A stretch of 64,000 nucleotides of DNA from a virus. Positions 1,670-49,437 of this stretch are shown piece by piece. The stretch is from IMG/VR virus record IMGVR_UViG_3300023283_000146, positions 1 to 64,000 of that record; one strand, given 5' to 3'. A program made the position numbers and the translations under genes. The notes below the pieces were generated by a model, which saw nothing but the letters and a program-made list of their open reading frames with translations, did not search any database and was not told the DNA's origin. Within the stretch, counting starts at the first letter, position 1. Each line of letters begins with the position of its first letter.

Positions 1670-2113
1670 TCAGGATTCCGGCATCGTAATCGTGAGCGAA
1701 GTCACTTCTACCTTTGCTCCGGCCACAATGTCCTTCGCATTGAGAACGAGCTCTTCCCCATTGTCAGGGTCAGCGGATTCTCGCACTGCGCCTTGGATCT
1801 TCGGAGTGTCGTCACGGTCCAACAGCCTGAAGAAGGTGGCCGTGCCAGTGTTGTTGGCATCCGTGTCATCCGAGATTGCGTTGGCCGTAGCCGTTGCTCC
1901 CGGTGCAGCGTCAGTGGCATTGCCGAAGGCCGGATTGCTTAGATCTAGCTCTGCAAGCACAGTGTTGCCCGAGAGAGCAGTGTCAGGAGCCGTGGGCGCA
2001 GTGCCGTCATAGATGACGAGCTTGCCCTGGGCGTTGGACGTACCAGCATCAACTGAGTCAACAGCGGTATCGCACATGTCAATCGCGACCGTGTTGGCAA
2101 TCGAAAGGGTCAT
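1670..2113 (-). CDS. hypothetical protein (147 aa), virion module
   Basis: ORF track. Start overlaps the portal stop (2110-2113). Ala/Thr/Asp-rich, no motif recognised. Confidence 0.6.
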   Translation of the reverse strand: MTLSIANTVAIDMCDTAVDSVDAGTSNAQGKLVIYDGTAPTAPDTALSGNTVLAELDLSNPAFGNATDAAPGATATANAISDDTDANNTGTATFFRLLDRDDTPKIQGAVRESADPDNGEELVLNAKDIVAGAKVEVTSLTITMPES

Positions 2114-3534
2114 TGGTTCTCCTCTGTGGTTTGCTCACCTTCTGGTGAAGGCTCTTCAACCCCAACACTAGGGTTGGGTTGACGTCTGGTGGGCAGCAAT
2201 GAGCTGTCCGCCATCAGGTTGATTTCTTCAGGCATGGTCAGGCCGAGCAAGTCACGAACCTGCCGCACAGCCGGATCATCCGGAGTAAGGATTGCACCAG
2301 CTTTCGCGAGATCGGCTAGTGCTCCTGTCACTTGTTCAATGTCACGGTAGGTGATCGCTTCAGTCTTGAGCGTGGGCATCAACTCAACAGGCCAACCGTT
2401 GAGCTCAAAGATGCGCCGCACAAGATCTCGCATGTAGACCTCACGGATCTCTTGCAGAGTTGAATCTACAATCAAGCCGAAGTTGTTCGATTTGTCTCGC
2501 GCAAGCGCGTGCGAGCCCGAGCTCCCCTCACCAAGCAGGAGGTTCTCCACCCCCAGTGTGCGGGCCATTTCAAGGTTCTTGCGCGCGATTGCCTGAGCGA
2601 TAGCTTCCTGAGACGTCGACCCTGCCCGCAACAGCGACATATCCCACTCCTTCACATTAGAAGGAGTCGAAGCATCATCTTCAGAACGATACGTCATGCT
2701 GTCCAGCAGCAGGCCGAGCTGAGGATTGCGGATGTGGTTTTCAATGAAGGTTTTCAGCGGCTTGACAATACTGTCTTTGTCTTCCTTAGAAAGCCTTCCT
2801 GCTTTGACCTCTTCTTCCAACGCAGCGAGCGGCGCTCTGCCCACGGGCATGCCGCGGAGGTCTGTCTCGAAGCCATAGCCTTCGAGCTTCTCTAGCTGCT
2901 CAAGCTCAGTTGCTCCTTTGACTACGTGCCGTAACAACCCCAACCCTTCAGGTGAGTCAGTCAAGGAGTCATCAACCAGGTACACGATCTTCTCGCGTGG
3001 CAGATAGATCTCCTCAAAGTTCTGGGGCGATCTTTGGATGACCCCGGCGACTCGCCCACCAACTTCTACGTCCCATCTTTCGATTGTGTGCTGTGGGCGT
3101 GCATCAACAGAAAGGAGCCCAATCTCTCCGGATTCAAGCTGTTGTGCTGTCCACTCTTGAATCGAGAACCCCCAGAACCGATAGCCTGCGCTCCGCCGAA
3201 CTATCTTGTGAAATGGGGTTTCTACGATCTTGGACAGAATCTCTTCTGTCTTCTGTGCAAGCTCTGCCGCCCGAGGCCCACCACCTATCGCTGGCTCATA
3301 CACCCACCGCGCCTTGGCTGTTAGGTTGAGAAAGAACCGAACACCAGCTGCAACGATTGCTGTGTTCGTGAGGATTTCACTGTAGCGAGTCCACTTCTGC
3401 TCACCAGTAAGATCTTTGTTCTTCTCGACCGTTTGGATGATGCCGCCATAAATCGGAGTACCGATTGTGCCGGCTTCTTTCGTTGCCGGAACGTTGCGGC
3501 GCAGGGGCGCGAGTAGTTGATCAAGAAAGGGCAT
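2110..3534 (-). CDS. portal protein (positional call)
   Basis: 474-aa ORF beginning 4 nt after the terL stop on the same strand. Size and position are typical of portal proteins; no motif verified. Confidence 0.7.
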   Translation of the reverse strand: MPFLDQLLAPLRRNVPATKEAGTIGTPIYGGIIQTVEKNKDLTGEQKWTRYSEILTNTAIVAAGVRFFLNLTAKARWVYEPAIGGGPRAAELAQKTEEILSKIVETPFHKIVRRSAGYRFWGFSIQEWTAQQLESGEIGLLSVDARPQHTIERWDVEVGGRVAGVIQRSPQNFEEIYLPREKIVYLVDDSLTDSPEGLGLLRHVVKGATELEQLEKLEGYGFETDLRGMPVGRAPLAALEEEVKAGRLSKEDKDSIVKPLKTFIENHIRNPQLGLLLDSMTYRSEDDASTPSNVKEWDMSLLRAGSTSQEAIAQAIARKNLEMARTLGVENLLLGEGSSGSHALARDKSNNFGLIVDSTLQEIREVYMRDLVRRIFELNGWPVELMPTLKTEAITYRDIEQVTGALADLAKAGAILTPDDPAVRQVRDLLGLTMPEEINLMADSSLLPTRRQPNPSVGVEEPSPEGEQTTEENQ

Positions 3535-3537: not shown

Positions 3538-5043
3538 TCAACCGCCAATGATCTCGGGTGACGACCCGAGGGGTGTGCGCTTCTTCACTTGTAGTTCCAT
3601 GTACGCGCGAGAAGCCGCATCAATCTGGTCAGTGTATTCACCGGCAGGAAACAACATAGCTTCCTGAATGAACGTTTCATTCCATGAGCCCCTCACCAGA
3701 AACAGGTTGCCTGCTTCAGCTTGAGCGGCCAACGGACGGGCACGATCTTCCTTGCTGCCCGTCTCAGGAGTGAACCGAACGTTGTACCCATGCACGAGCG
3801 CAGCGAGATGCCCCTTTTGTGATTTGCCCGCCTGCCCAGGGTCTTGCGGAAGCCCAATCTTGACGTCCAGCCCGTCAGCTGTGGCGCAAGCGACGACTGC
3901 CTGCTCTACCGCATGCGGGCTACCTTTGAGACGACGTGAGTGCTCGATATAGATGCGGCCGCGGGAGTCTCTCGACATTTTGACGCCCGCAGTGAACTTT
4001 GCCCGCTTCTTCACAGAACCTGCGAGGTCCCAGCCGCGCACCACCCGCACTGCATCAGCCGGTGCTGAGTCTACAAACTGGAAGAACTCCCTCTTGAACA
4101 TGCCACCACCCCGTGGCACTGGACGCTGTTGCAGCTGTCCTGCCTCCGCATAGGTGCCTCCCCAGGCACGCATCTGTGGCTTGAGTTCGTTCTCTAAGTA
4201 GTTTCGTGAGAAGAACTGGGGCCACAACAGCTCCCCTTCCTCTGTCCTGGGGTCTTCAAAGCCAATAATCGTCTTGCACTTCCGGTCCTGCTCAAACTCC
4301 ATTGGCAGGCAAAGGTGCGTGTAGCCGAGATCATGCTTGAGGATTAGCCCACTGATGTCGTTGGTGTGAACCCTCTGCATGATCACAACGATCGCAGAGC
4401 GATCAGGATCGTTCAGCCGGGTTGGCACAACCTCAGTGAACCACTGCGCCGCATCTTCTCTGCGCGCCTCCGAGTCAGCCGTCTTGATGTTGTGCGGGTC
4501 GTCGATCGTAAACCGATCACCCCGCTCACCAACAGTCATGCCTCCAACAGAGGTTGCAATCCTAACCCCCATGTGATCATTGTCATACCGGACCTTCGCA
4601 TTCTGATCTGCCGTCAGGTGGAAACGATCTCCCCAGGCTGCCTGGTAGCGCTCCGATTCAATGAGAATGCGACAACGTCGGTTGTCTCGAATCGTTAGTT
4701 CCTCGGAGTATGAGCTCGAGACATAACGCAACTGGGGCCGGTTCTTCGGCCCCCACTCCCAAGCCGGCCAGAACACACACGTGGTCATCGACTTCATGCA
4801 ACCTGGCGGCACATTGATCAACAGACGCCGAATCTCTCCGTTCGACACTGCTTCAAGATGCTCACAGATCGCCCCGATCGCCCAGCCATTTACAAAGTCA
4901 CGACCCGGCTCTAGCACTTCCCACATGTACTGGATGAAGCCAACTAGACGCCGCTCCGCCTCCAGCCGGTCCATCGCCTCCAGCGCAGCTTCTGGGTTCT
5001 CTAAGGCTGCAGCCAGAGCACGATCAATCTTCTCGTTCGACAC
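3538..5043 (-). CDS. terL: terminase large subunit
   Basis: 501 aa, GTG start preceded by AGGAAGA. The N-terminal ATPase-like region (LINVPPGCMKSM) and the C-terminal nuclease-like region look like TerL. Preceded by terS and followed by portal. Confidence 0.85.
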   Translation of the reverse strand: MSNEKIDRALAAALENPEAALEAMDRLEAERRLVGFIQYMWEVLEPGRDFVNGWAIGAICEHLEAVSNGEIRRLLINVPPGCMKSMTTCVFWPAWEWGPKNRPQLRYVSSSYSEELTIRDNRRCRILIESERYQAAWGDRFHLTADQNAKVRYDNDHMGVRIATSVGGMTVGERGDRFTIDDPHNIKTADSEARREDAAQWFTEVVPTRLNDPDRSAIVVIMQRVHTNDISGLILKHDLGYTHLCLPMEFEQDRKCKTIIGFEDPRTEEGELLWPQFFSRNYLENELKPQMRAWGGTYAEAGQLQQRPVPRGGGMFKREFFQFVDSAPADAVRVVRGWDLAGSVKKRAKFTAGVKMSRDSRGRIYIEHSRRLKGSPHAVEQAVVACATADGLDVKIGLPQDPGQAGKSQKGHLAALVHGYNVRFTPETGSKEDRARPLAAQAEAGNLFLVRGSWNETFIQEAMLFPAGEYTDQIDAASRAYMELQVKKRTPLGSSPEIIGG

Positions 5044-5677
5044 CAGGGTCTTCCTCTTCGTTCTCTATGTCAATGGTGCGCGCCTGCTCCAACTGCTGCG
5101 CTTCTCGTGAAGCCTTCACCTGTTTCAACAGGTGCCGAAGCTGCGCCTGCTGCTCAGGCGGTAGGTCCTTCAAGACTTCAAGGGTTGGGTAGACCCCAAC
5201 CGCACCTTCGTGCTTCACCGTTTTCTGGACAGAGGTTCGGTCGCGATACTCAGCAATGTGGCGTTTCGCCAACATCGCCAACAGTTGATCACTATATTTA
5301 CGAACCTTGCCCTGTACCTGCCCTCTGTGGAACACAGGTTCGTCCCAACCATCGATTGCTCGACGATGGATCTCTGCCTCGATCGATTCTCGATAGACCT
5401 GCATCGCCTCTTCCTCCGCCATCGCAAAGGAAAGGTCTTTCTGGGCGGTTTTGTAGACAGTCTGCCGAGTCACACCAGCCCGCATAGCTGACTCAGCCTT
5501 CCGCCCCGTCTTAGCGAGAATGTCGAGATAAATCCTCTGCCGAGCTTTGTCGAACCTCGTCCACGACTTCAGGTTCGATCCTCGCTCGCCAGCTGCCTTG
5601 TTGGTTCCGCCGAAGGTCTCCGGGTACCGAACACGACTCTCTTTCGACTTCTTCTTTCTCTTCGCCACAAGCGCCAA
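5024..5677 (-). CDS. terS: terminase small subunit (HTH type)
   Basis: 217 aa overlapping the terL start. Basic N-terminus, then an HTH-like stretch (ILAKTGRKAESAMRAGVTRQTVYK) and a coiled-coil, acidic C-terminus. Confidence 0.7.
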   Translation of the reverse strand: MALVAKRKKKSKESRVRYPETFGGTNKAAGERGSNLKSWTRFDKARQRIYLDILAKTGRKAESAMRAGVTRQTVYKTAQKDLSFAMAEEEAMQVYRESIEAEIHRRAIDGWDEPVFHRGQVQGKVRKYSDQLLAMLAKRHIAEYRDRTSVQKTVKHEGAVGVYPTLEVLKDLPPEQQAQLRHLLKQVKASREAQQLEQARTIDIENEEEDPGVERED

Positions 5678-5928
5678 GAATATCCGTTCCTGGGGCCGGG
5701 CGCATCAGTGAAAGATCAAGAGAACGGAGCCCTGCCTAGCTACATGGCATCACCAGACAGGGCTCCAAGCGGCGCAACCCCCATTCAGAGAAAGGCTGGT
5801 CAGTGAAATCCTGCGCCACCACATAAACTCGAACAAGGGTCGTCGACAGCTCAAGAACCCAGGCAGCAGGGTTCTGGCTCAAGAAGACACGCGAAAAGGA
5901 GCGAAAAAGACAAGGCTGGTGGCCCAGA

Positions 5929-5950
5929 GGGGGCGGCGGTAGCCGCCCCC
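5929..5950. terminator. GC hairpin (9-bp stem GGGGGCGGC, loop GGTA); possible attenuator between element A and terS
   Basis: Perfect inverted repeat seen directly. On the minus strand a T-rich tract (tctttttcgctccttttcg) follows about 15 nt downstream. Confidence 0.3.
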
Positions 5951-5988
5951 TAACTCTGTCTGGGGGCCCTCGAATAGTGTTTCGGGCT

Positions 5989-6270
5989 CCGAACGACCTA
6001 CTCGACCTTGTCTTCTGCCGTGGCCTGAGGTCGTTCGGCGTAAGTCCGGCCCAGCACAGCGGTTACTCTACCTACTCTACCTACTCGACTTGAGAGAGAG
6101 GAGAGAGATCAGAGTTGCAGGTCGCCCCGCTGGGCAAATGCACCGATCTCTCCTGGTTTTGTTGCAAAGGTCGAGTAGGTCGAGTAGGTCGTTCGGGGCC
6201 TGTGCTCTGAAGGAGTTACGGCGAACGACCTTGAAACACACAGGTCGAGTAGGTCGAGTAGGTCGTTCGG
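5989..6270. repeat. composite repeat element A: direct and inverted GGTCGAGTA / CGAACGACC motifs around a GAGAGGAGAGAGATC tract (weaker copies extend to about 6420)
   Basis: ccgaacgacctactcgacc (5989), ctactcgac + gagagaggagagagatc (6080-6110), ggtcgagtaggtcgagtaggtcgttcgg twice (6169-6195, 6243-6270). The same order of sub-motifs recurs at 43147-43421. Confidence 0.85.
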
Positions 6271-6539
6271 GCGTCTAGGTTCAGGCCTGAACGTGATGGA
6301 AGCTGTGTGTAGGTGATGAAGCTGAATCGGGTCAAGGGCCGATGCGTCTTGACTCGACCTACGGTGGCTCGAACGACCTGCGGCCCCCGCCGCTCGACCT
6401 GGGTGAGGCGGGTCGAGTTGGAACAAGAGACAAGTTTGGTTTTTGGTGGAAATGTCTCGAGCGTCGGAGCGGGCCAAAGTGAGCCCCCCTACCGGGGGTC
6501 CCTCTTACCGAACTTTTACGACAAATCTATTTACTGAAG

Positions 6540-6668
6540 TCTTACGTAAGACTTTCGTAAGATTACACAACTCTTACAGTGATTCACTAAAGCCCCAGTC
6601 TTACGTAACTCTTACGGTGATTCACTAAAGTTGCAGTCTTACGTAACTCTTACAGTGATTCACTAAAG
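6540..6668. repeat. one perfect TCTTACGTAAGA palindrome (6540-6551) followed by a 38-bp tandem repeat x3 (core CTCTTACRGTGATTCACTAAAG at 6571, 6609, 6647)
   Basis: Read directly from the sequence. Confidence 0.9.
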
Positions 6669-6695
6669 TCTCGGTCTTACACAAGTCTTACCAAG

Positions 6696-6770
6696 AAAGG
6701 CTAAAGGTGAAAGAAGCTGGGGAAAGGCTAAAGGTGAAAGAAACCCGGGAAAAGCTAAAGGTGAAAGGGC
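6696..6770. repeat. 26-27-bp tandem repeat x3 (core GCTAAAGGTGAAAG at 6700, 6727, 6753)
   Basis: Read directly from the sequence. Purine-rich on the plus strand. Confidence 0.9.
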
Positions 6771-7088
6771 CGGCCAGCCGAGGCCCCGCCCCACCGACCG
6801 AAAGAACGGGCCGGTTCGACAAGGGCCCGCGCCGGCCGGGCCCCGGTAGGGCCGGGGGCGAGCGACGGCCCCGGCCCCTACCGCTAGCCCCCTACCCTTA
6901 CCGGATATACCCTTCCCCAGCCCCCGCCCCGCTAGGCTACGTACCGCTGGCCCTACGCTGCGGCCCGGCGGGCCTTAGCTACCTTGCCGTTTACGCCCCG
7001 CCCTAGGCCCCCGGGCCTTAGTACGGGCCCTACCGTTACGGCTAAATAGCAACGGCCCTAGCCCCCCGCTGTAATACAAGAAACACAA

Positions 7089-7131
7089 TAGCCGCGGGCC
7101 GTTGGTAGTAGCTACCAACGGCCCGCGGCTA
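7089..7131 (-). terminator. 20-bp perfect inverted repeat downstream of the last island gene
   Basis: tagccgcgggccgttggtag / ctaccaacggcccgcggcta separated by 3 nt, 17 nt after the stop at 7148. No clean U-tract. Confidence 0.5.
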
Positions 7132-7147
7132 GCGTAAGGTTACCGCC

Positions 7148-7390
7148 CTAAGCGGCTAGCAGCGGGAGCAGCGCAACGGCCCCGCCGAGGAGCATAAGGG
7201 CCGCGCCCCACGCCAGCGGCCGCATAACGGCCCGCTCTTCGGCCCGTAGGGCCGCGGCGGCCAGGCGGTGGTATTCCCGCCGCTCGGCGCCGCTAAGGGC
7301 GGGCCGGCGGTCCGCCAGGTCGACAAAGCGGGCCCAAGAAACAGGGCAGAAGCCCGCGGGACGGCTGTCTTGGTATTTAGCGGTAGGCAT
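7148..7390 (-). CDS. hypothetical small protein (80 aa) with a hydrophobic C-terminal segment
   Basis: Track ORF 7148..7414 trimmed to the internal ATG at 7390 (MPTAKYQ...). This ATG has the same ATGCCTACCGCT start as the upstream mini-ORF. The C-terminus AWGAALMLLGGAVALLPLLAA looks transmembrane. Confidence 0.5.
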   Translation of the reverse strand: MPTAKYQDSRPAGFCPVSWARFVDLADRRPALSGAERREYHRLAAAALRAEERAVMRPLAWGAALMLLGGAVALLPLLAA

Positions 7391-7397
7391 GGCTAGG

Positions 7398-7484
7398 CTA
7401 GGCGAAAGCGACAAGAGCGCTAAGGGTAAGGCCCAGGGCGGCGGCGCGGACGGCGAGAGCGGTAAGACGAGGAGCGGTAGGCAT
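7398..7484 (-). CDS. possible 28-aa hydrophobic peptide (MPTAPRLTALAVRAAALGLTLSALVAFA)
   Basis: Not in the track (too short); my translation. Begins with the same 12 nt as the next gene and sits just downstream of the duplicated GC-rich leader. Confidence 0.3.
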   Translation of the reverse strand: MPTAPRLTALAVRAAALGLTLSALVAFA

Positions 7485-7575
7485 GGCTAGCGGTAGGGTT
7501 AGGGGCCCGGGGGCGGCCGGGCCGGCCGGCGGGGCCGCGCCCCGCTATATGGAGATAACGGCTAGCGGGGGGCCT
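7485..7575 (-). promoter_or_regulatory. GC-rich upstream/leader element, copy 1 (copy 2 at 9032-9115)
   Basis: Shares aggggcccgggggcggccggg (7501-7521 = 9044-9064), then ccccgc-(N)-atat and acggctagcggg blocks with copy 2. Both abut a minus-strand ATG. Confidence 0.4.
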
Positions 7576-7595
7576 AACCTTTAGGCCCCCCGCTA
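7563..7595 (-). terminator. 15-bp stem hairpin downstream of gene 7636..8043
   Basis: tagcggggggcctaa / ttaggccccccgcta with a 3-nt loop. Confidence 0.45.
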
Positions 7596-7635
7596 ATATA
7601 GCCGCGCTTACCGTAAGCTACGCTAACGGCAATAC

Positions 7636-8043
7636 TTACGCCCCCAGGTCCCCGAACGGGCCCCCCAGGTAGGGCCCGTAGCTAGGGGCGCCCGGCCGGC
7701 GCGGACAAAGGGCGGCCCAACGCCGTACTAGCCGCTGTAGCGCCCGCCGCTGGTGCCCTTTGGCCCGGCCCCGCTGGGCGTTTACCGCCCGCGCCACCGC
7801 GGCCCGTAGGTAGCCGGGGCCGCGCCCGTGGTCCGGTAGCGCTGCTCCTAGGGCCCGTAGGTCGGCTGGCGTAGCGTAGTAGCCCGCTAGGGCGTCCTCC
7901 GCTACGGTAGCGGTAAGCGCGGCGGCCCCGTTGGGCCTAGCGTACGGCCTAAGGGCCGCATGCCCACGCAAGGCGGTAAGTAGGCGGGCGGTCGGGGGCG
8001 TAGCGCGGCGGGCGGCGCGGCGGCGGCGGAGCGGGGAGCGCAT
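7636..8043 (-). CDS. hypothetical Ala/Arg-rich protein (135 aa)
   Basis: ORF track, the only long frame here. Upstream context ccctagctactactagctATG lacks a Shine-Dalgarno. Confidence 0.5.
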   Translation of the reverse strand: MRSPLRRRRAARRATPPTARLLTALRGHAALRPYARPNGAAALTATVAEDALAGYYATPADLRALGAALPDHGRGPGYLRAAVARAVNAQRGRAKGHQRRALQRLVRRWAALCPRRPGAPSYGPYLGGPFGDLGA

Positions 8044-8132
8044 AGCTAGTAGTAGCTAGGGTAGCGGCGGGCGGCGCGGGGGACCGCCCCCCGCGCACAA
8101 CGTTACTTTTCGGCTAGGGCGGCCGGGGCCCT

Positions 8133-8564
8133 TTAGCGGCTTAGCGGTTTACGGTACGGCAAGCGCCACAAACCTTTAGCGCCCGCCAGCCAGTCGCCCC
8201 CGCCGGCCGGCTGGGGCCCGCCGGCCCGTAGCCGGGCTAGCCGGTAGGCCCAGCGGCGCTCGTTCCGCTGGTCCGTTTGGCCTAAAGCCGTTAGGGCTTC
8301 TAGGTACGCTACTAGTACGTTTATAGCCGTAGGGCGGCCCCGCCATTTGTAGCGGCTTTTGTAGCTGTTGTGGTCGGTAAGCCGTAGCGCTAGAAAAGCT
8401 ACTTCTTGAACGGGCCCGGCTACGTATACGGCTAGGGCCCCGTGTACTGCCCGTAGCCGGTTACGGGTAGCGGCGTCGAGCTCGGGTTCGGCTAGGTAGC
8501 GGGCCGTTAGGCTTAGGGCCGCGGCGGCAATGCGCCGGTTACGTACTTTGTGGGGGGCTTCCAT
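8133..8564 (-). CDS. hypothetical protein (143 aa)
   Basis: ORF track. A 9-bp GC hairpin (8074-8096) lies downstream. Confidence 0.5.
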   Translation of the reverse strand: MEAPHKVRNRRIAAAALSLTARYLAEPELDAATRNRLRAVHGALAVYVAGPVQEVAFLALRLTDHNSYKSRYKWRGRPTAINVLVAYLEALTALGQTDQRNERRWAYRLARLRAGGPQPAGGGDWLAGAKGLWRLPYRKPLSR

Positions 8565-8586
8565 AGCGTAGTAGTGGCGGGGGCGC

Positions 8587-8787
8587 CTATTGCTTTTCTT
8601 CTTGGTACTCCACCGTGTCGTCCACGCCTGCTTCGTAGGCTTTTTGTACTAGCTCAAAAAGTTGGAACCGGGTCAGGATAACCGGGCCTTGGCGGAGCGC
8701 GTAGGCTACAACGCCAAAGTATTCGTCAATCACACAGTCCGCCATCAGCTCGCTGGTCTCGATGGGGTGTCCGTCGTATTTGCGCAT
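8587..8787 (-). CDS. hypothetical 66-aa protein, tandem paralog B
   Basis: ORF track. Clearly homologous to 8831..9031 (MRxxDGHP..SELMADCxID.YF....Y....GP.xLTR.QL..LVQ.AY.AGV...VEYQ.EKQ). Conservation at protein level supports coding. Confidence 0.7.
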   Translation of the reverse strand: MRKYDGHPIETSELMADCVIDEYFGVVAYALRQGPVILTRFQLFELVQKAYEAGVDDTVEYQEEKQ

Positions 8788-8823
8788 GGTAGGTAGGTAG
8801 GTAGGTAGGTAGGTAGGTAGGTA
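8788..8823. repeat. (GGTA)9 microsatellite, i.e. (TACC)9 on the coding strand, abutting the ATG of 8587..8787
   Basis: Nine perfect units counted. They fill 36 of the 43 intergenic nt between the two paralogs. Confidence 0.95.
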
Positions 8824-8830
8824 GGGCCGC

Positions 8831-9031
8831 CTATTGCTTTTCTTTTTGGTACTCCACGCCTTCGCGCACCCCCGCTACGTACGCTATTTGTACCAAGCTT
8901 AGCAGCTGGTAGCGGGTTAGCAGCGCTGGGCCCCCGCGCTCTACGTAGTTGTCGGTGTTGAAGTAGTCGTCGATCAGGCAGTCCGCCATCAGCTCAGAGA
9001 CTTGCTCGGGGTGTCCGTCGTGGTGGCGCAT
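8831..9031 (-). CDS. hypothetical 66-aa protein, tandem paralog A
   Basis: ORF track. Paralog of 8587..8787, preceded by cctacgctacctaccATG. Confidence 0.7.
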   Translation of the reverse strand: MRHHDGHPEQVSELMADCLIDDYFNTDNYVERGGPALLTRYQLLSLVQIAYVAGVREGVEYQKEKQ

Positions 9032-9115
9032 GGTAGGTAGCGTAGGGGCCCGGGGGCGGCCGGGCGGCCGGCGGGGGGCGGCGCGCCCCGCGCATATACA
9101 TCTACGGCTAGCGGG
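9032..9115 (-). promoter_or_regulatory. GC-rich upstream/leader element, copy 2
   Basis: See copy 1 (7485-7575). Lies at the left edge of the divergent control region. Confidence 0.4.
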
Positions 9116-9454
9116 CCCCGGTAACCTTAGCCTACCTAGCCCGTTTAGCGGATTTACGGCCCTAAGCGTAGCCGTAAGCTAGGCTTACGGCCCCCGCCCC
9201 CTAGCGAGGGCCCTAGCGGGGGCCTACGGCCCGGCCGCCCCTTAGCGCTCCGGCCCTACGGCCCCGGGGCCGGGCCGTAAGGCCGCTAGCTTAGGGGCCC
9301 CTACGGCCCCGGGGGCCGCCGGCCGTTTAGCTAAGGCCCGGGGGGCCGGCCGGCCGACTAGGCTAGCTGGGCGCGCGCCCCGCCCTACTAGGGGCCGTTG
9401 CCTTTAGCTCATTACCAAAATAATACGTAAGATTTGAGTATGGTCTTACCTACG

Positions 9455-9672
9455 TCTTACGTAAGAACCGTGTAAGACAAGCTTGTTTACATAGATCTTA
9501 CGTAAGACTTGAGTAAGGCCGTCTGCGCACGATTTACGAAGATCTTACGTAAGACTTGAGTAAGATCGTGATTCTTACGAAGATCTTACGTAAGACCTTC
9601 GTAAGATCGTGATTCTTACGAAGATCTTACGTAAGACTTGAGTAAGACTTACGTAAGACTTGTTCTTACGAA
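9455..9672. repeat. array of five perfect 12-bp palindromes TCTTACGTAAGA plus one 10-bp version, embedded in about 41-49-bp tandem units
   Basis: Perfect copies at 9455, 9496, 9543, 9584 and 9625; CTTACGTAAG at 9648. Unit starts GATCTTACGTAAGAC. Confidence 0.95.
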
Positions 9673-9706
9673 GATCTTACTAAAGTTCGGCAACCGATCG
9701 ACCGAA

Positions 9707-9787
9707 ACACAAGTCACCCTCCGACCAAAACACAAGTCACCCCTTGACCGAAACACAAGTCACCCTCCGACCAAAACACAAGTCACC
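9707..9787 (+). repeat. 4 x 23-bp direct repeats, each carrying ACACAAGTCACC
   Basis: Motif starts at 9707, 9730, 9753 and 9776. Three or four more degenerate copies follow up to the ATG at 9889. Confidence 0.95.
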
Positions 9788-9888
9788 CCGTAAGGAAACC
9801 GTAAGAACGCAAGTCATCATTTGCCACCACGCGTCGACAAGGTATCCTTGCCCAGTCACCAGTAACACCAAGTCATCACCAAGTCACC

Positions 9889-10101
9889 ATGGAACACAAC
9901 ATCCGCAAGAACACAGAGCACGATGCCTGGGAAGTCATCGATGAGCTCGGCTACGTGGTCATCCCCACCACTCCGCACACGATGCGGACGGCTCGGCAAG
10001 CAGCCTACCTGGCGGCCCTGCTGGAGCTCGCTGAGCAGAATGACCAAATCGCTCGGCAAGTCACGGCTCTGCAAGAAGACATCCTCGCAGACCACAGCTG
10101 A
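9889..10101 (+). CDS. hypothetical early protein (70 aa)
   Basis: ORF track. ATG directly preceded by ACCAAGTCACC. Confidence 0.7.
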   Translation: MEHNIRKNTEHDAWEVIDELGYVVIPTTPHTMRTARQAAYLAALLELAEQNDQIARQVTALQEDILADHS

Positions 10102-10110
10102 GGCACTGCT

Positions 10111-10257
10111 GTGAAGGCTACCGATCAAGAGCTCGACCGCATGGCCGCTGGGCAAATGGTGCTGTGCGGTTGCTGCCGCGCTGCTGAAGCCTACGCACTG
10201 ACTTTGTGCGAAGAGCTCCTGTGCGAAGAGTGCTGGGATGCACACCTGAGTCAATAG
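10111..10257 (+). CDS. possible Cys-rich mini-protein (48 aa, GTG start)
   Basis: Not in the track. My translation is VKATDQELDRMAAGQMVLCGCCRAAEAYALTLCEELLCEECWDAHLSQ. Fills the gap between neighbouring genes. Confidence 0.35.
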   Translation: MKATDQELDRMAAGQMVLCGCCRAAEAYALTLCEELLCEECWDAHLSQ

Positions 10258-10283
10258 CAAGTCACCCCCAACAACAAGTCATC

Positions 10284-10700
10284 ATGCAAGAATACGACAT
10301 CACCCTCCTGGACGACGGCACCCTCGACACTGTGTTCGTGTGCAATCTCTGCGAGCAGGAGCTCCGCTACAGCCACATCCAACGGGACGCGGAAGGCGAC
10401 ATCGAACCGGACGAGCTCGACCGAGTGCTGGACGAGCACGCGGAAGAGTGCGAAGCCTTCGCTGCTGTGGAGTGGCGGGCCCGGAATGCTTTCGCCCGCC
10501 AAAGCCTGACCACGTTCCCCCAGGCCGGCCTGGGCGGATGCCGCGAATGTGGTCAGGAGGCCCCGAGCATACGGCTGGACCCTGACTCTGGCCGCCCCCA
10601 GGAGCTCGGCCATTTCTGCAGCTTCGCCTGCGCAGCCACCTTCCTGGGCATGGAGGATGAAGAGATCGAAGCGTGGGAATGGTGGGGCCCCGAAGCCTAG
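10284..10700 (+). CDS. hypothetical early protein (138 aa), CxxC-rich
   Basis: Track ORF 10206..10700 trimmed to the ATG butted against CAAGTCATC. CNLC, CRECG and CSFAC motifs are present. Confidence 0.7.
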   Translation: MQEYDITLLDDGTLDTVFVCNLCEQELRYSHIQRDAEGDIEPDELDRVLDEHAEECEAFAAVEWRARNAFARQSLTTFPQAGLGGCRECGQEAPSIRLDPDSGRPQELGHFCSFACAATFLGMEDEEIEAWEWWGPEA

Positions 10701-10770
10701 CCGCAGGTTTCTCGAAGAAACCTAAGGCCCAGCCGCCAACAGGACGATATACAGAAGGCAAGGGCACCAA

Positions 10771-10812
10771 CAAGTCACTCCGCAACACAAGTCACTCCGC
10801 AACACAAGTCAC
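10771..10812 (+). repeat. 3 x 17-bp direct repeats carrying CAAGTCAC, the last abutting the ATG at 10814
   Basis: CAAGTCAC at 10771, 10788 and 10805. Confidence 0.9.
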
Positions 10813-10813
10813 C

Positions 10814-11437
10814 ATGAACACCATCATCGACACCAAATACACCCAGCCCACTGTTCGTGTGCATCTCGCATACGACAGTCTCTACAATCCCGCGCTGGAT
10901 CTCGACGGCAACACTGACCCTGAAACGTGCGCAGCGCTGAAGCGGGAGATCGAGCAGATCGAGCGGGGGGAGCTGACCCCCGTGTGTGTTTGGCAAGAAC
11001 GGCACTGCCGCTGCTGTGGCACCTGGAGCCGAGAGGGGGATGTCATGGGCGTCATCGTCGGCAGTATCGAGGAAGCCTGGGGCTACGTCAAGAGCGAAGA
11101 CTTGTTGGCCACGCCGCAAGCCACGCGTGCTGATGCTCTGCGCGAGCTACACGAGGACATCTCTGCCTTGCGCAATCACATGGAAACAGCTGGCCTGGAC
11201 ACCAAAGGCCAACAGCTGGCCGCCCGTCGAATGGCCTCCTTGCAGCAAGAGCTGAACAGGGTGAACCGGCAAAGGCTACTGGAGGAGCTGAGAACGTTCG
11301 CAGAGACCATCGTGGACTACGGCGTGCCCACCGTGGGCGCTCGTCAGATCGTGCAGCAGCGACTGATCAGCAACACGGCTAAGGTGCTGCGGGAACTGGA
11401 TCAGCTGGATGCCGAGTACGATCCCAGTAAAGCCTAA
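10814..11437 (+). CDS. hypothetical early protein (207 aa)
   Basis: Track ORF 10673..11437 trimmed to the ATG preceded by CAAGTCACC. Confidence 0.7.
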   Translation: MNTIIDTKYTQPTVRVHLAYDSLYNPALDLDGNTDPETCAALKREIEQIERGELTPVCVWQERHCRCCGTWSREGDVMGVIVGSIEEAWGYVKSEDLLATPQATRADALRELHEDISALRNHMETAGLDTKGQQLAARRMASLQQELNRVNRQRLLEELRTFAETIVDYGVPTVGARQIVQQRLISNTAKVLRELDQLDAEYDPSKA

Positions 11438-11488
11438 AGCCTGGGGCCTGGGCAGCCGATAAGGTTCCTACACATGCGACAAGTCACC

Positions 11489-12337
11489 ATGAGCAACCGC
11501 TTCTCTGCCTCCAACATCGACCCCTCCGAGTGGGCGGAGGTTCTCGTGTTCCACTACAACGTGGAGGTCGATGGCTGGCCTGTGCCAGCCTACAATCTCG
11601 AAGCCCTCATCGCATTGCGCCAGGCGAACCCGGGCCGTTTCTTCCAGCATGAGAACGGGGGCTGCGCAATCTGTGGTGCGCGGTTCAAGTACGGGTCGGT
11701 CTTCCGCAACGAACAGACGGGCGACCACATTGTGGTCGGGTGGATCTGCGCGGAGAAGCTGGAGCTCACAAGCGACTTGGCCGCCCACCGCATGGTCAAG
11801 GAACGGGCCTTTGCCGCACAGCGGCGCACGCTGCGGCGCAGGGAGCTCTTCCGCTGGGCGCAAGCCAATCGTGATTTGCTTCCGCTGTTGCGTGTGGACC
11901 ATGGCATTACCCGTGACATCCGGCGGCAGGTGATTGCACGCCCCGAGCGCGGCCTCACGGGCCCACAGATCGATCTACTCCAGCGCCTCAAGCAGCAGGT
12001 CGCGGAGAAGGAGAAGCGTGACCAGGAGCCCAAGGTGCCGGCGCCGGAAGGGCGGCACACCATCGAAGGTGAGCTCGTCTCAGCCAAGCATGTTGACTCG
12101 GACTACGGCGTGCAGACCAAGATGGTGGTGAAGATCCAACAGCCGGAAGGGTCCTGGGTAGCCTACGGCACGATGCCGAGCATTCTCGAGGACACCTTGT
12201 GGGAGAGAGGGATCATGTTTGACCAGTTGCGAGAAAAGCAACTGCATGTACGGTTCACAGCTACCTTCAAGCGTAGCAATCGCGAAGAGCATTTCGCCTT
12301 CGCGAAGCGTCCTACTAAGGCTGAGCTACTCAGCTAA
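11489..12337 (+). CDS. hypothetical early protein (282 aa)
   Basis: Track ORF 11474..12337 trimmed to the ATG preceded by GACAAGTCACC. Confidence 0.75.
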   Translation: MSNRFSASNIDPSEWAEVLVFHYNVEVDGWPVPAYNLEALIALRQANPGRFFQHENGGCAICGARFKYGSVFRNEQTGDHIVVGWICAEKLELTSDLAAHRMVKERAFAAQRRTLRRRELFRWAQANRDLLPLLRVDHGITRDIRRQVIARPERGLTGPQIDLLQRLKQQVAEKEKRDQEPKVPAPEGRHTIEGELVSAKHVDSDYGVQTKMVVKIQQPEGSWVAYGTMPSILEDTLWERGIMFDQLREKQLHVRFTATFKRSNREEHFAFAKRPTKAELLS

Positions 12338-12368
12338 CACCACAAGTCACCAACCGACAAGTCACCTC

Positions 12369-12632
12369 ATGCGACTGCTTGAACAAATGAACGCTCTGCG
12401 CGACGGCCGTGTGCACGGCGGCTATTCCTGGGCTGCTGTCATGGCCGATGGTGAACTGCTCTGTGAAAGCTGCTTCACCGCACATTTCCGCTACATCTTC
12501 TGCACTACATGCGAAGATGATGACAGCAATACCCAGTGGAGGTTCATCGGGTTGACCAACAGTGGCGAAGCTGAACACACTGTGCACTGTGCACAGTGCA
12601 ACCGAGAAATCTGGAACCTGGAGAACGACTGA
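12369..12632 (+). CDS. hypothetical Cys-rich protein (87 aa)
   Basis: Track ORF 12219..12632 trimmed. Two motif copies lie upstream (CAAGTCACCAACCGACAAGTCACCTC-ATG). Confidence 0.65.
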   Translation: MRLLEQMNALRDGRVHGGYSWAAVMADGELLCESCFTAHFRYIFCTTCEDDDSNTQWRFIGLTNSGEAEHTVHCAQCNREIWNLEND

Positions 12633-12826
12633 TGAAGATCGAACGTCTTGGACACTACGCCCCCGGCAGCTTCGGGCTGCCGACACGCCACAATGAGCAG
12701 CGCACTGTCGTGCCTGTCTGGACGTGTGGGCGTCGTCGGAATGGACCAGACAACAAGCCATGTGTGCACTCCAGCCGCGAGGAGGCACGGGAGTGCCGGC
12801 GCCGAAGCACAAAGGTGCCCACGTAA
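12632..12826 (+). CDS. hypothetical protein (64 aa)
   Basis: Internal ATG of track ORF 12596..12826, overlapping the previous stop (TGATG). Confidence 0.5.
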   Translation: MKIERLGHYAPGSFGLPTRHNEQRTVVPVWTCGRRRNGPDNKPCVHSSREEARECRRRSTKVPT

Positions 12827-12838
12827 GCTTCGATCACA

Positions 12839-13087
12839 ATGAGTTCGATCACAATGAGGAACCCGAACCGCCAGCTGGCGGAAGTCGAAGTCGAACGGGT
12901 CGAGCCCCACTGGGCCTACGTGCGCATAGCACGTAGGCTGGACCCCGCCTTCCGTGGCCCGCCATCAGCGCTACGGCGTGGGATCGATATCAGCCACAAG
13001 GCCCAGGTGGGCGACTATGGTGTGCTTTGGTACATCGTTGGGCCGACCTATGGGCTGCAACAAGTCATCCTCATTCACAGGGACTAG
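12839..13087 (+). CDS. hypothetical protein (82 aa)
   Basis: ORF track; fits the gap in the operon. Confidence 0.5.
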   Translation: MSSITMRNPNRQLAEVEVERVEPHWAYVRIARRLDPAFRGPPSALRRGIDISHKAQVGDYGVLWYIVGPTYGLQQVILIHRD

Positions 13088-13104
13088 CGCAATACCAAGT
13101 CACC

Positions 13105-13524
13105 ATGGCACAGCACCAATGGCACCCTGGGCAAGAAGTCTTGCTATGGGCTGTCGATCGCCCAGGCGGGCTGATGAGGCCCAGCAAGGCCGTTATTGAT
13201 CGAGTGCTCAAGACAGGCCACGCGGTCCTGCGCATGCGCTCGGGACCACGATTCCGCCCAGACGGCACCCAAACCGGAGACCCGCTTCGGCACAGCAGGA
13301 TACAGCCCTGGGACGAGGAAGCGAGCCGCCTGGTACAGCAGTACCAGACGGCCGACCAAGCACGACGGGCTGCGCATGCGCTAGAGGGGCTGTTGAGTAA
13401 CGTACGCCCAAGGTGTCTCAAGTCTTGCGACTGGCAGCAGATCCATGAAGAGCTCTGCTCTACAGACAAGACAGTACGAAAGCTGATCGATTTACGGAAT
13501 AGGGAGAATGGTAGCGCTGGATAG
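13105..13524 (+). CDS. hypothetical protein (139 aa)
   Basis: Track ORF 13027..13524 trimmed to the ATG preceded by ACCAAGTCACC. Confidence 0.65.
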   Translation: MAQHQWHPGQEVLLWAVDRPGGLMRPSKAVIDRVLKTGHAVLRMRSGPRFRPDGTQTGDPLRHSRIQPWDEEASRLVQQYQTADQARRAAHALEGLLSNVRPRCLKSCDWQQIHEELCSTDKTVRKLIDLRNRENGSAG

Positions 13525-13620
13525 GTGCAAACCCTATACTTGTAGTGCGATGGTGACTTGTCGCTTTCTCTGCTGTGGTGTGGTGACGGCCGCAGCAGGG
13601 AAGAACCCTCCTGAAGGGTA

Positions 13621-13660
13621 GGGGCCTGTGCAGCGTTGGTGTCTGCACGGGCCCCTTTCT
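13621..13660 (+). terminator. rho-independent-type terminator splitting the early operon
   Basis: 13-bp stem ggggcctgtgcag / ctgcacgggcccc (one G-U pair), 9-nt loop, then TTTCT. Confidence 0.65.
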
Positions 13661-13709
13661 ATGTTGCCGCCTGGCGTTGCGTAGGCTAGCCTTACCTGCA
13701 CAGGCGCAG

Positions 13710-13913
13710 ATGAGTAAGGCACAGAGAGATCAACAGCACGTCGTTGTGCTCCGCGACGGGACAGTCATAGGGCCCTTCACTGCCCGTGAGGCCATCCAGT
13801 TCGTTCGCACAGGCATACGCTTGCCGAGATCCTCTGAGCTCCGTCATGCTTTCGTGCGCCCGCGCCTGCCCAAGGATGAGCCGAAAGATCCAAGACAAGT
13901 CACCCTTGAATGA
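13710..13913 (+). CDS. hypothetical protein (67 aa)
   Basis: Internal ATG of track ORF 13677..13913. First gene after the terminator. Confidence 0.5.
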   Translation: MSKAQRDQQHVVVLRDGTVIGPFTAREAIQFVRTGIRLPRSSELRHAFVRPRLPKDEPKDPRQVTLE

Positions 13914-14269
13914 ATCCGCAAACACAAGTCACCCCTGGTGAGCTTCGAATGCCTGGTGCGCTCCAAGAGCTTCGGCCATTTCTCTTGGATGCAGCTAAAG
14001 GCTATGAGACACGCCGAGAGCACCGTTTGGCTGAACCTTGCCATGTGCTAGCAACAGCCATTCAACTGCATGCCCGGCTCGATCTCACAGAGTTCGGTTG
14101 GGAGCATTTCCATGCACTGCGCCAGGCAGCTTCTGCAGCTTATTTCCACAGTGAAATAAGTGAAGAGCGTTGTATGTTCCTGATGTTGTGCGTACTGTGT
14201 GATGGTGCCTTGGACAACAGCTGTTGTCGCAAATGGCACCTGTCAGATCTGCCTACGGTGGTGTCGTGA
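13910..14269 (+). CDS. hypothetical protein (119 aa)
   Basis: ORF track. ATGA overlap with the previous gene; CAAGTCACC lies 5 nt upstream of the ATG. Confidence 0.55.
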   Translation: MNPQTQVTPGELRMPGALQELRPFLLDAAKGYETRREHRLAEPCHVLATAIQLHARLDLTEFGWEHFHALRQAASAAYFHSEISEERCMFLMLCVLCDGALDNSCCRKWHLSDLPTVVS

Positions 14270-14394
14270 TGTCAATCACTACGGTTGAGCTTTCAGACGG
14301 CCGTGTTGCTGATATCTACAGTCTGACCTTTGGGCGGGCCAGGCTTGGTGTCCGAGCAGCAGACAGCCTCAGCTATGATGACGCTTGGTGATAT
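14269..14394 (+). CDS. possible 41-aa protein
   Basis: Not in the track. The ATG overlaps the previous stop (TGATG); my translation is MSITTVELSDGRVADIYSLTFGRARLGVRAADSLSYDDAW. Confidence 0.25.
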
Positions 14395-14528
14395 AGCTCT
14401 TGGGATGCTGCGGTCGCAGCAGTGCAGCAATGGGACCCCCGAGAGCAAACAGAGCCAATGGGCTGGATACGTCACCCCAGCAGTGGCCGTAGTCAAGAGC
14501 TAGGTGGTGAAAAGCAAGTGATCCGTCA

Positions 14529-15092
14529 ATGGACCAGTCGATGAAAAGCGATAGACAAGTCATCTCCGAGCTACGAGCTCAGGTGGACTACTACAAGACG
14601 CGAGAGGAAGCGTTCTCAGCTGCTTTACAGGTACCTGACGAGGCAGAGGTTGATTGGGCGGCGCGGCTGCGAGGATTGCTGAGTGAACGTGATGGCCTAC
14701 GGATGCAGGTGCGAATGTTCGAGAACCTGGTTCAAGAACAAGCTCTTACTGGCGAACCCAGAGATGGCCACTACACCAATGATTTGCTGACTATGCAATG
14801 GCGCTGGCGTGCAGTTGCATATCTGCTTACGGCACGACAGTTGTGTCGGGCACTAGGTGAGGAGCCTGATGAAGAGACGTTGGGCTATGCCTACAATCGC
14901 GACAATGTTGAGTTGCATGCTGTGTTGGGGATGGCAAAAGCAACACAAGTCACTCTTGAAGACATCAAGCGTTGGACAGACCAACAGTGCCAAGAGGCAT
15001 ATGAGTGGGGGCTCATATTCTTTTTGAGCCGTTGGCGACAAAATCAGCCTTACGTTCCGCCACGCCCACAGCACGTTCCTGGGGTTCAATAA
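14529..15092 (+). CDS. hypothetical protein (187 aa)
   Basis: ORF track. Contains two internal CAAGTCA copies (about 14557 and 14946). Confidence 0.65.
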   Translation: MDQSMKSDRQVISELRAQVDYYKTREEAFSAALQVPDEAEVDWAARLRGLLSERDGLRMQVRMFENLVQEQALTGEPRDGHYTNDLLTMQWRWRAVAYLLTARQLCRALGEEPDEETLGYAYNRDNVELHAVLGMAKATQVTLEDIKRWTDQQCQEAYEWGLIFFLSRWRQNQPYVPPRPQHVPGVQ

Positions 15093-15131
15093 GGCCACAT
15101 AAACACAAGTCATCGCCCAACACAAGTCATC

Positions 15132-28290: not shown

Positions 28291-28317
28291 GAGAACATGA
28301 TATCTATCATGTGCTAG

Positions 28318-32177: not shown

Positions 32178-32180
32178 TGT

Positions 32181-36800: not shown

Positions 36801-36803
36801 CGG

Positions 36804-49433: not shown

Positions 49434-49437
49434 AGCA

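Follow-up and report, generated by a model that had tools for sequence, protein, structure and literature searches.

Twin palindromic repeat elements at the heads of the terS and SNF2 helicase operons of a phage genome, with counterparts at the same junctions in six relatives

The DNA stretch analysed here (64,000 nt, IMG/VR virus record IMGVR_UViG_3300023283_000146; hereafter the window) represents nearly all of a 64,766-bp phage contig, and its minus strand carries two large gene blocks, one for packaging and structural functions and the other for replication and nucleotide metabolism. The genes that open these blocks, namely terS and an SNF2-family helicase gene, are each preceded by a noncoding repeat element of ~280-290 bp, here named element A (core 5985-6273, with extra repeat copies out to 6418) and element B (43147-43421). 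The twin is real and far beyond chance. A and B are best regarded as the form, unusually regular and palindromic, that this phage has of a twin whose conservation extends over a broad phage supergroup. That they form a DNA-level protein-binding platform is well supported, and we assign a probability of about 0.5 to the reading that they are twin control regions of this kind, heading the terS-packaging-structural and SNF2-replication operons:

5024-5677, minus strand: terS, opening the packaging/structural operon (phrog_4044 terminase small subunit, E = 7e-39)
41556-43007, minus strand: SNF2-family helicase gene, opening the replication/nucleotide-metabolism operon (PF00176, E = 8e-22; PF00271; phrog_62)

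The first-pass annotation of this DNA had described the two elements as built from the same blocks in the same order and orientation, and all of these blocks were found in place. Compared with dinucleotide shuffles, GGTCGAGT is strongly enriched, with 19 copies in the window against 2.04 expected (none of 100 shuffles reached 19), 14 of which map to the elements (seven in 6000-6418 and seven in 43148-43409). Eight of the nine copies of GGTCGTTCG (0.55 expected) are also located there, six in A and two in B, and GAGAGGAGAGAGATC has exactly two copies in the window (6096 and 43253). The density of the GGTCG/CGACC pentamer, with a mean of 1.2 per 500-bp bin, is maximal in the bins at 6000 (14) and 43000 (12). 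A repeat finder detected an ungapped direct repeat of 117 nt (5994-6110 and 43151-43267, 73% identity), along with several long inverted matches within and between A and B. The pairwise alignment proposed as a check in the annotation gave a local score far above chance (z = 37 against shuffles), and in the ungapped register the motif columns were 87% identical while the spacer columns were 46% identical, indicating selection on short motifs rather than on the whole sequence. The distances to the genes were also correct, since the left edge of A (5985-5990) is ~310 nt from the terS start (5677) and that of B (43147) is 140 nt from the SNF2 ATG (43007). The only other contig with an identical SNF2 protein, an independent Logan assembly (L017, SRR23862446), has 100% identity to the window wherever the two were compared, all of B included, so that an assembly artefact can be discounted for B.

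Each element is a large imperfect palindrome of ~290 bp, a feature absent from the earlier description. The order from left to right on the plus strand is a reversed outer array, a middle module, a reversed inner array (two or three tandem 9-mers), a polypurine mirror repeat and a ~55-bp unique centre, followed by the forward inner array, the middle module and the forward outer array. The parts of element A are:

5985-6273, no strand: element A core, ~290-bp imperfect palindrome (DNA fold -83.5 kcal/mol, z = -10)
5990-6007, minus strand: left outer array, GGTCGAGTA-GGTCGTTCG as read on the minus strand
6029-6047, plus strand: left middle module, GGTCGTTCG + GCGTAAGTCC, inverted partner of 6211-6230
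6064-6090, minus strand: left inner array, tandem 9-mers TACTCTACC, TACTCTACC, TACTCGACT (TRF period 9, 2.6 copies)
6092-6110, plus strand: polypurine mirror repeat, GAGAGAGAGGAGAGAGA then TC
6126-6138, plus strand: central 13-mer, CCCGCTGGGCAAA, identical to a 13-mer before the SNF2 ATG on the other strand
6168-6196, plus strand: right inner array, AGGTCGAGT AGGTCGAGT AGGTCGTTCGG
6211-6230, plus strand: right middle module, AGGAGTTACG + GCGAACGACC
6242-6270, plus strand: right outer array, AGGTCGAGT AGGTCGAGT AGGTCGTTCGG, starting 74 bp past the inner array
6352-6418, no strand: tail of four scattered copies (6352 minus, 6371 minus, 6392 minus, 6411 plus), with no counterpart in B

Those of element B, together with the second copy of the 13-mer, are:

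43147-43421, no strand: element B, module order of A, imperfect palindrome (DNA fold z = -6)
43147-43165, minus strand: left outer array, two copies of ACTCGACC, period 9
43186-43204, plus strand: left middle module, GGTCGTTCG + TCGTAAACCC, in the loop of a local 9-bp stem, GCTGTGGCT / AGCCACAGC
43222-43248, minus strand: left inner array, one degenerate and two exact ACTCGACC 9-mers
43252-43267, plus strand: polypurine tract, AGAGAGGAGAGAGA then TC
43318-43336, plus strand: right inner array, GGTCGAGTAG AGTCGAGCAG
43351-43383, plus strand: right middle module, AGGAGTTACG plus a local hairpin, CGTTGGAA-GGTCG-TTCCAACG
43392-43421, plus strand: right outer array, GGTCGAGTCA GGTCGAGTCA GGTCGTTCGG, period 10, starting 74 bp past the inner array
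43020-43032, minus strand: 13-mer CCCGCTGGGCAAA, 13-25 nt upstream of the SNF2 ATG

The left middle modules of A and B share the consensus GGTCGTTCG + CGTAA(G/A)NCC, and the right ones combine AGGAGTTACG with GGTCGTTC, the latter reversed in A and forward in B, while the forward outer arrays follow the pattern GGTCGAGT(A/CA)-GGTCGAGT(A/CA)-GGTCGTTCGG. The offset between the starts of the outer and inner arrays is 74 bp in all four arms, and the repeat period is 9 bp everywhere except in the right outer array of B (10 bp). Within A, the inverted pair 6028-6059 / 6200-6231 is 81% complementary, and the polypurine tract has an inverted partial copy, GATCTCTCC, at 6145-6153. The G+C content is 57.3% in A, 59.1% in B and 55.3% in the genome, that is, the elements are not AT-rich. 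The 13-mer CCCGCTGGGCAAA has 11 matches with up to two mismatches (2.3 expected), its only exact copies being 6126-6138 and 43020-43032, and its first 10 nt match CCCGCTGGGC, found upstream of the helicase gene of phage YuA. All six frames of A and B are full of stops or yield repeat-derived peptides; the open reading frame (ORF) 6109-6477, which overlaps A, had no Pfam or PHROG match, and the stop codon of a 228-aa ORF (43399-44085) is located inside the right outer array of B.

Single strands of A and B fold end to end (DNA z = -10 and -6), and the RNA fold energies of the two strands were -161.7 and -153.4 kcal/mol for A, and -136.0 and -135.8 kcal/mol for B, with few G-U pairs. The middle modules of B form separate local hairpins that are not complementary between arms. 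Differences between A and B and from arm to arm are uncompensated; the inner left variant of A (GGTAGAGTA) mismatches GGTCGAGTA, and the 10-bp spacing of B is present in one arm only. The near-equal energies of the strands and the non-complementary middle modules of B indicate that the conserved feature is the motif content and not one RNA structure. Several features indicate a platform that acts at the DNA level: conservation follows the motifs, both orientations are used, repeat spacing may be 9 or 10 bp, the 74-bp offset is fixed and neither strand is favoured. Two alternatives raised in the first-pass annotation lost ground here: small-RNA genes are disfavoured by the absence of any family match in an Rfam search of the elements and by the lack of strand asymmetry in folding, and recombination sites by the absence of a recombinase among the larger ORFs scanned against Pfam, a scan in which many small ORFs were not included.

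The annotation had also proposed looking for the same pair in related genomes. In six complete relatives (YuA, CN1, PaMx11, PhiJL001, Pam3 and RHph_I65) the gap upstream of the SNF2 gene was searched against its own genome, and in all six the best non-self match was the gap upstream of terS, revealing a position-equivalent twin pair in each. The window has the same arrangement, with A and B as each other's best within-genome match, one upstream of terS and the other upstream of SNF2. The pairs in the relatives are:

YuA: helicase side 622-651, terS side 33160-33189; 30/30 identical, plus blocks over ~270 nt
Pam3: helicase side 21850-22073, terS side 54201-54423; 91.6% over 225 nt
PaMx11: helicase side 28241-28539, terS side 715-416; 88-100% in blocks, inverted
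RHph_I65: helicase side 42688-42731, terS side 16960-17003; 98% over 44 nt, plus 22/22
Bordetella CN1: helicase side 495-563, terS side 34946-35014; 69/69 identical
PhiJL001 (AY576273.1): helicase side 3001-3167, terS side 31233-31400; 86% over 169 nt

An all-against-all comparison was made for the window, YuA, PaMx11, Pam3 and RHph_I65, that is, with CN1 and PhiJL001 left aside. Against shuffles, the z values of these five genomes were 16-145 within genomes and at most 6.6 between genomes, indicating that the two copies of a genome evolve together. Every phage has a private short motif that clusters in its twins. The copies are both direct and inverted and surround a core that is AT-rich or of low complexity, and polypurine in the window. 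The closest architecture is that of PhiJL001, with tandem 9-mer triples, an AGGTC/GACCT core, a 9-bp period, and reversed and forward arrays around a centre, in the same GACCT-centre-AGGTC polarity as in the window. Its layout is GGACCTGAT GGACCTGAC GGACCGGTC, an AT-rich centre and ATCAGGTCC ATCAGGTCT ATCAGGTAC, in other words three copies of GGACCTGA followed by three of TCAGGTCC, and 17 of the 27 copies of GGACCTGA in that genome are in its two elements. The PhiJL001 motif reads GGACCTGA(T/C), as against GGTCGAGTA in the window, and, unlike the window, the PhiJL001 centre is strongly AT-rich and includes a plausible promoter (TGGACT-N18-TATACT) in one copy. YuA and CN1 have GTAAGTTAA repeats with a 9-bp period followed by a microsatellite, and PaMx11 has a (CT)n/(GA)n core adjoining TAGAGTAAC. 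The elements of the relatives are 8-20 points lower in G+C than their own genomes, which is not the case in the window.

These pairs are here called the twin junction element of YuA/PhiJL001/Pam3-type phages; the grouping is our own and not a published family. The element appears to be undescribed so far: no description was found in the literature that could be searched, and the words "promoter" and "intergenic" are absent from the text of a 2025 family review (PMC11946847). The YuA record carries no annotation of its two regions as paralogues.

Two dispersed copies with internal inverted symmetry would also be compatible with a small non-autonomous mobile element, similar to a miniature inverted-repeat transposable element, that landed by chance in two intergenic gaps. 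This is highly improbable, since the same two positions in the window and in all six relatives hold unrelated sequences, and the conservation is motif-wise instead of uniform. Only two copies are present (target-site duplications were not searched for), and no transposase was found among the ORFs scanned. In addition, an exact search for the triple array GGTCGAGT-N1-2-GGTCGAGT-N1-2-GGTCGTTCG gave no matches in viral, metagenome and genome contigs, and a looser double 9-mer gave 116 loci in viral contigs, of which all those listed were single matches, consistent with chance.

Evidence for a transcriptional role comes from YuA. Its GenBank record (NC_010116.1), on which the positions rest, annotates two promoter-trap-verified sigma-70 promoters, 489-568 and 33014-33160, that are located inside the two YuA copies; both are described as "medium activity, clear -35/-10", and the -35 hexamer TTAGGT lies in a block shared by both copies. 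The promoter trap is that of Ceyssens et al. 2008 (J Bacteriol 190:1429, as cited in NC_010116.1 and PMC10914365). According to the second source (PMC10914365), ONT-cappable-seq recovered one sigma-70-like YuA promoter consistent with the promoter-trap assay, the text leaving unspecified which trapped promoter this is, and YuA is without a polymerase of its own. The YuA regions resemble those of the window in their location (in front of terS and of the SNF2 helicase gene), in being paralogous (~270 nt), in their 9-bp-period GTAAGTTAA repeats followed by a simple-sequence tract, and in the presence of an orthologous helix-turn-helix (HTH) "putative repressor" gene adjoining the primase gene. 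The two phages nevertheless share no alignable sequence in these regions, and the YuA copies are AT-rich and non-palindromic with one short array, whereas the window has four arrays and no -35/-10 match.

The position of the elements in the window and in all six relatives, together with the YuA promoters, is the reason why transcription control is favoured. The proposal of the first-pass annotation, that A and B are paralogous control regions of the two long operons, thus gains from the twins in the relatives and from the overlap of the YuA copies with trapped promoters, but no sigma-70-like or sigma-54-like promoter was detectable in or beside A or B. Several observations weigh against this reading. 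No sigma-70 sites (-35/-10 with 16-18 bp spacing) were found in 5400-7200 or 42800-44200, in a scan for which the host consensus was not identified. A sigma-54 scan, prompted by the sigma-54 late promoters of YuA, gave 42 matches to TGGCAC-N5-TTGCW with up to two mismatches against 46 expected, none of them in 5678-5990 or 43008-43147. The PaMx11 copies are inverted relative to the downstream genes, an arrangement not easily reconciled with a simple directional promoter and better explained by a site that works in either orientation. The best-conserved block of YuA, CN1 and RHph_I65 is the repeat or low-complexity core, and in YuA this core is outside the annotated promoter, on its downstream side. 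Finally, the head-to-head symmetry and the encoded SF3-type primase-helicase suit a replication origin equally well. In favour of transcription control, the gap equivalent to that of B in the closest SNF2 relative (contig L015) contains a hairpin followed by a promoter-like site, TTGACC-N17-TAGGAT.

Proximity to terS raises the question of DNA packaging. The arrays-around-centre layout can be likened to the packaging (pac) sites of phages P1 and SPP1 (pacL-pacC-pacR); A could be the headful pac site recognised by TerS and B another site of that type, the repeat clusters flanking the cleavage zone. One copy adjoins terS in the window and in the six relatives, and circularly permuted genomes and headful packaging are reported for the Mesyanzhinovviridae in the 2025 review (PMC11946847). 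Such a function is nonetheless improbable, as it gives no role to the conserved second copy, 20-37 kb away at the helicase gene; each genome has two copies, only A is near terS, the YuA copies are promoters, and no link between TerS and the motifs was found. To our knowledge, known pac sites are single.

On the gene strand, a G+C hairpin is located downstream of each element:

5929-5950, minus strand: G+C hairpin between A and terS, 9-10 bp stem, 4-nt loop
43078-43102, minus strand: G+C hairpin between B and SNF2, GCAGCCGG / CCGGCTGC, part of a longer palindrome (43055-43122)

The former had been reported with a T-rich tract downstream; its G+C stem is real, but the tract is not adjacent and begins ~18 nt past the stem, and without an adjacent U tract the hairpin was not called by the terminator scan and is not a canonical terminator. 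The same holds for the pair as a whole, as neither hairpin has a U tract or was called a terminator. These hairpins, and the long ones predicted for A and B, could suggest an RNA role in the operon leaders, either nut/put-like antitermination past the G+C hairpins or the use of the ~290-nt hairpin as an RNase III processing or stability site. The pattern of one phage-specific, co-evolving paralogous pair at the heads of two operons is that of λ nutL/nutR and HK022 putL/putR, and the position of the YuA core downstream of the annotated promoter would place it in the transcribed leader. We consider this role unlikely: nut and put sites are short strand-specific RNA hairpins, whereas the window has symmetric arrays of ~280 bp with similar predicted stability on both strands and few G-U pairs, and the tandem direct repeats of each arm are not needed by a hairpin. 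The uncompensated differences between A and B, the non-complementary middle modules of B, the lack of an Rfam match, the downstream hairpins without U tracts and the inverted PaMx11 twins also argue against it.

A replication function is the main alternative, although less probable than the control function. In this scenario A and B would be twin origins, or an origin and a cis-acting partner, the inverted 9-mer arrays being iterons that load a primase-helicase, alone or with its HTH neighbour, in a head-to-head arrangement, and the polypurine centre (AT-rich in the relatives) being the melting or priming zone. The protein concerned is:

25185-27581, minus strand: primase-helicase fusion, candidate binder if the elements are origins; RepB'-like primase plus DUF5906/SF3-type helicase, 798 aa (PDB 6k9c "Primase", E = 5e-9)

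Two-site or inverted-repeat origins include SPP1 oriL/oriR, P4 ori/crr, the SaPI origin and RSF1010 ssiA/ssiB. The sites of SPP1 and P4 are far apart and carry the same short repeats, as in the window, and are bound by one phage replication protein, which in P4 is a fusion of a primase and an SF3-type helicase like the 798-aa protein; they are not, however, tied to terS and helicase junctions, while the window elements are, and the latter are not AT-rich. The clustered short repeats, direct and inverted, in palindromic arrays around a low-complexity centre are in line with an origin, and so are the elements of the relatives, 8-20 points more AT-rich than their genomes, and the AT-rich centre between the PhiJL001 arrays. 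The inverted PaMx11 twins suggest orientation independence, and private motifs in concerted within-genome evolution are what initiator/iteron specificity would predict. Against this, the window elements (57-59% versus 55% G+C) include no AT-rich unwinding region, and they are 15-20 kb from the primase-helicase gene. No GC-skew inflection was found at the elements in the five genomes tested, with one-way drift in the four that are co-oriented; in the window the cumulative GC skew tracks gene orientation. As a test for an origin, the skew carries little information. The YuA copies also carry demonstrated promoters, but origins often include promoters.

Pam3 and RHph_I65, moreover, encode a small DnaA domain-IV-like HTH protein (PF08299; Pam3 42164-42457, E = 9e-15; RHph_I65 7506-7736, E = 8e-12), just upstream of the DNA polymerase gene, which is a further point in favour of an origin; such a protein was searched for in the window and was not found. 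DnaA-box-like TGTGGAGAA occurs in the Pam3 twin elements.

Returning to the control regions, two HTH proteins encoded in the window are candidates for binding to them:

27578-27943, minus strand: tandem double-HTH protein, putative trans factor (HTH_23, E = 1e-9; internal repeat)
36804-37064, minus strand: Xre-type HTH protein, a weak lead (HTH_31, E = 9e-10), flanked by single CGGTCGAGTCT sites (37034, 37217)

The former has 48.5% identity to YuA gp25, a "putative repressor", and 39% to PaMx11 gp58. Its gene is just upstream of the primase-helicase gene in the window, as are its homologues in YuA and PaMx11, while for CN1 and PhiJL001 an HTH gene in this place is indicated by record annotation and position only. 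With its two HTH units, this protein would be the most economical candidate reader of adjacent 9-mers. The CGGTCGAGTCT sites give a weak hint that the Xre-type protein could read the GGTCGAGT motif. Its gene is flanked by 41-nt direct repeats (36765-36805 / 37181-37221, 80% identical), and the CGGTCGAGTCT site at 37034 sits in the palindrome GACTCG-GT-CGAGTC; the segment 36765-37221 may be an autoregulated cassette. No ribbon-helix-helix, ParR or IE1-type protein was identified in the window.

In the mechanism proposed here, each copy would act as double-stranded DNA, presenting four arrays of 9-10-bp repeats with an AGGTCG core, two reversed and two forward, 74 bp (seven helical turns) apart in each arm and head-to-head around a ~60-70-bp centre that begins with the polypurine tract. 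We infer that a phage-encoded sequence-specific DNA-binding protein binds these arrays co-operatively, the best candidate being the 27578-27943 protein, whose two HTH units would match two adjacent 9-mers. The bound protein would activate or repress the promoters that feed both operons, and that A and B themselves may contain, so that the packaging and replication genes would be switched together. At the level of mechanism, contiguous 7-11-bp direct or inverted repeats with co-operative binding and flanking or overlapping promoters are also present in R1 parC/ParR, the pSM19035 ω heptads and the MetJ metboxes, for which no homology is claimed.

A more speculative possibility, which we hold at lower odds than a plain origin, is that the twins are dual enhancer and origin modules. 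The analogy is with the baculovirus hrs, dispersed palindrome-containing repeats that serve as enhancers and origins (for example, PMC4535591). One phage protein might then bind and bridge both copies, looping out the structural block and coupling the transcription switch with replication initiation, and perhaps with packaging.

Other genes of the two blocks were identified in Pfam and PHROG scans:

3538-5043, minus strand: terL, downstream of terS
2110-3534, minus strand: portal gene, after terL
28318-30234, minus strand: family A DNA polymerase gene, in the replication block

The replication block also encodes Pam3 gp33/gp34-like proteins and a Dda-like helicase. Tail genes (44082-57512) are on the minus strand as well, and would belong to the terS structural block if the genome is circular or permuted. 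Small early genes are located on the plus strand, from ~9.9 to 20.3 kb, and few genes of the window have a Shine-Dalgarno-like sequence. Four copies of a 63-nt tandem repeat at 16-330, at the window start in the structural region, probably explain the break point of the assembly. A thymidine-hypermodification gene set was found at 31128-36152, including a thymidylate-synthase-like enzyme, a 5-hmdU DNA kinase (PF18723), a GNAT protein, an FAD oxidoreductase and an amino-acid:DNA transferase (PF18724). Judging from these genes, the phage DNA probably carries modified thymidines, which would also occur in the T-containing 9-mers.

This phage has only distant relatives. The closest phages are just 51% identical in terL, the closest phage records are 41-44% identical in SNF2 (Pam3, PaMx11, Ab18, YuA and RHph_I65), and the terS and SNF2 relatives in viral contigs are just 40-56% identical. 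The top SNF2 homologue among 5.8 billion proteins is only 51% identical, indicating that the phage is a singleton. No closer relative was found in any of the collections searched (phage records, and viral, metagenome and genome contigs), and blastn of the A and B regions against 50,697 phage records gave no match. In Shewanella phage S0112, the top terL match, the replication module is different and terS is not preceded by a gap, and in a metagenomic relative (L013) there is no gap upstream of the helicase gene, as small ORFs extend to it.

Two further words were found near the gene starts of the relatives. The sequence GA(G/A)AAATGGAG precedes the helicase start directly in YuA (~810-830), PaMx11 (28650-28667), Pam3 (22120-22140), RHph_I65 (42865-42882) and CN1 (692-707); the hosts of the phages that conserve it are Pseudomonas, Bordetella, Rhizobium and a cyanobacterium, and the window lacks it. 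The word (C)CTGGGC, followed by a TATACT, TATGCT or TAGGAT-like hexamer, is located 30-50 nt before the helicase or terS starts of YuA, PhiJL001, Pam3 and RHph_I65 (for example, CCCGCTGGGCTATACTT in YuA and CCCTTGGGCTATGCT in PhiJL001), and CCCGCTGGGCAAA of the window shares its first part only.

The region to the right of A contains repeats of other kinds. Directly next to it are a 38-nt tandem repeat (3.2 copies, 6569-6691) and a 27-nt tandem repeat (2.7 copies, 6695-6767). The palindrome TCTTACGTAAGA occurs in two clusters, 6531-6690 and 9412-9667, with 18 matches against 0.4 expected and a single 1-mismatch match elsewhere in the window (63273). The clusters are mutually inverted (up to 91% complementary) and lie on either side of a 2.7-kb block with a G+C content of 64-67%; they resemble early-promoter operators of a dimeric repressor. 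The words TCTTAGGT / TCTTAAC were found inside the twin elements of the relatives. The high-G+C block (6700-9400) has odd low-complexity words (GGGCCGGCC, CTAGC and TACGG), a (GGTA)9.5 microsatellite (8788-8825), a 38-nt G+C repeat at 7500 and 9043, and two paralogous ORFs of 66 aa (8587-8787 and 8831-9031) in a 109-nt repeat. The TCTTACGTAAGA clusters form the boundaries of this block, which may be a foreign insert. On the minus strand, a leftward cluster of small genes (9031-7148) ends in a very strong hairpin of the intrinsic-terminator type (7089-7131; 20-bp stem, 14 G-C pairs, T-rich tail), which is upstream of A on the gene strand.

Further to the right, ACAAGTCAY occurs 22 times in the window (1.1 expected), with 18 copies on the plus strand between 9709 and 15130. 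The region begins with four 23-nt tandem repeats (9693-9807), followed by single or double copies upstream of plus-strand ORFs (9880-15130), some of which abut start codons, such as CAAGTCACCATG at 9880, 10805 and 13096. By analogy with the repeated "promoter requiring phage-encoded cofactor" of YuA, this motif may be a phage-specific promoter or translation signal of early genes.

Gene control and replication are little known in YuA/M6/PhiJL001/Pam3-type phages, a group with Pseudomonas phages under consideration for therapy and with phages whose thymidine is hypermodified; 160 phage records carry the SNF2 / Pam3-gp34 module (E <=1e-60). The presence of the twin in all seven genomes examined, at the same two junctions and with private motifs, points to a common, undescribed control logic, and provides a concrete handle on it, namely a defined DNA site and a short list of candidate binders. 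Owing to its exact 9-mers in four arrays, the version in the window offers the cleanest starting material for binding and footprinting assays. As origins, the twins would be the first to be mapped in the group; as operators, they would define the switch by which packaging and replication genes are co-ordinated. If they combine enhancer and origin functions, this arrangement would be conserved across a supergroup infecting Pseudomonas, Bordetella, Rhizobium, marine alphaproteobacteria and cyanobacteria.

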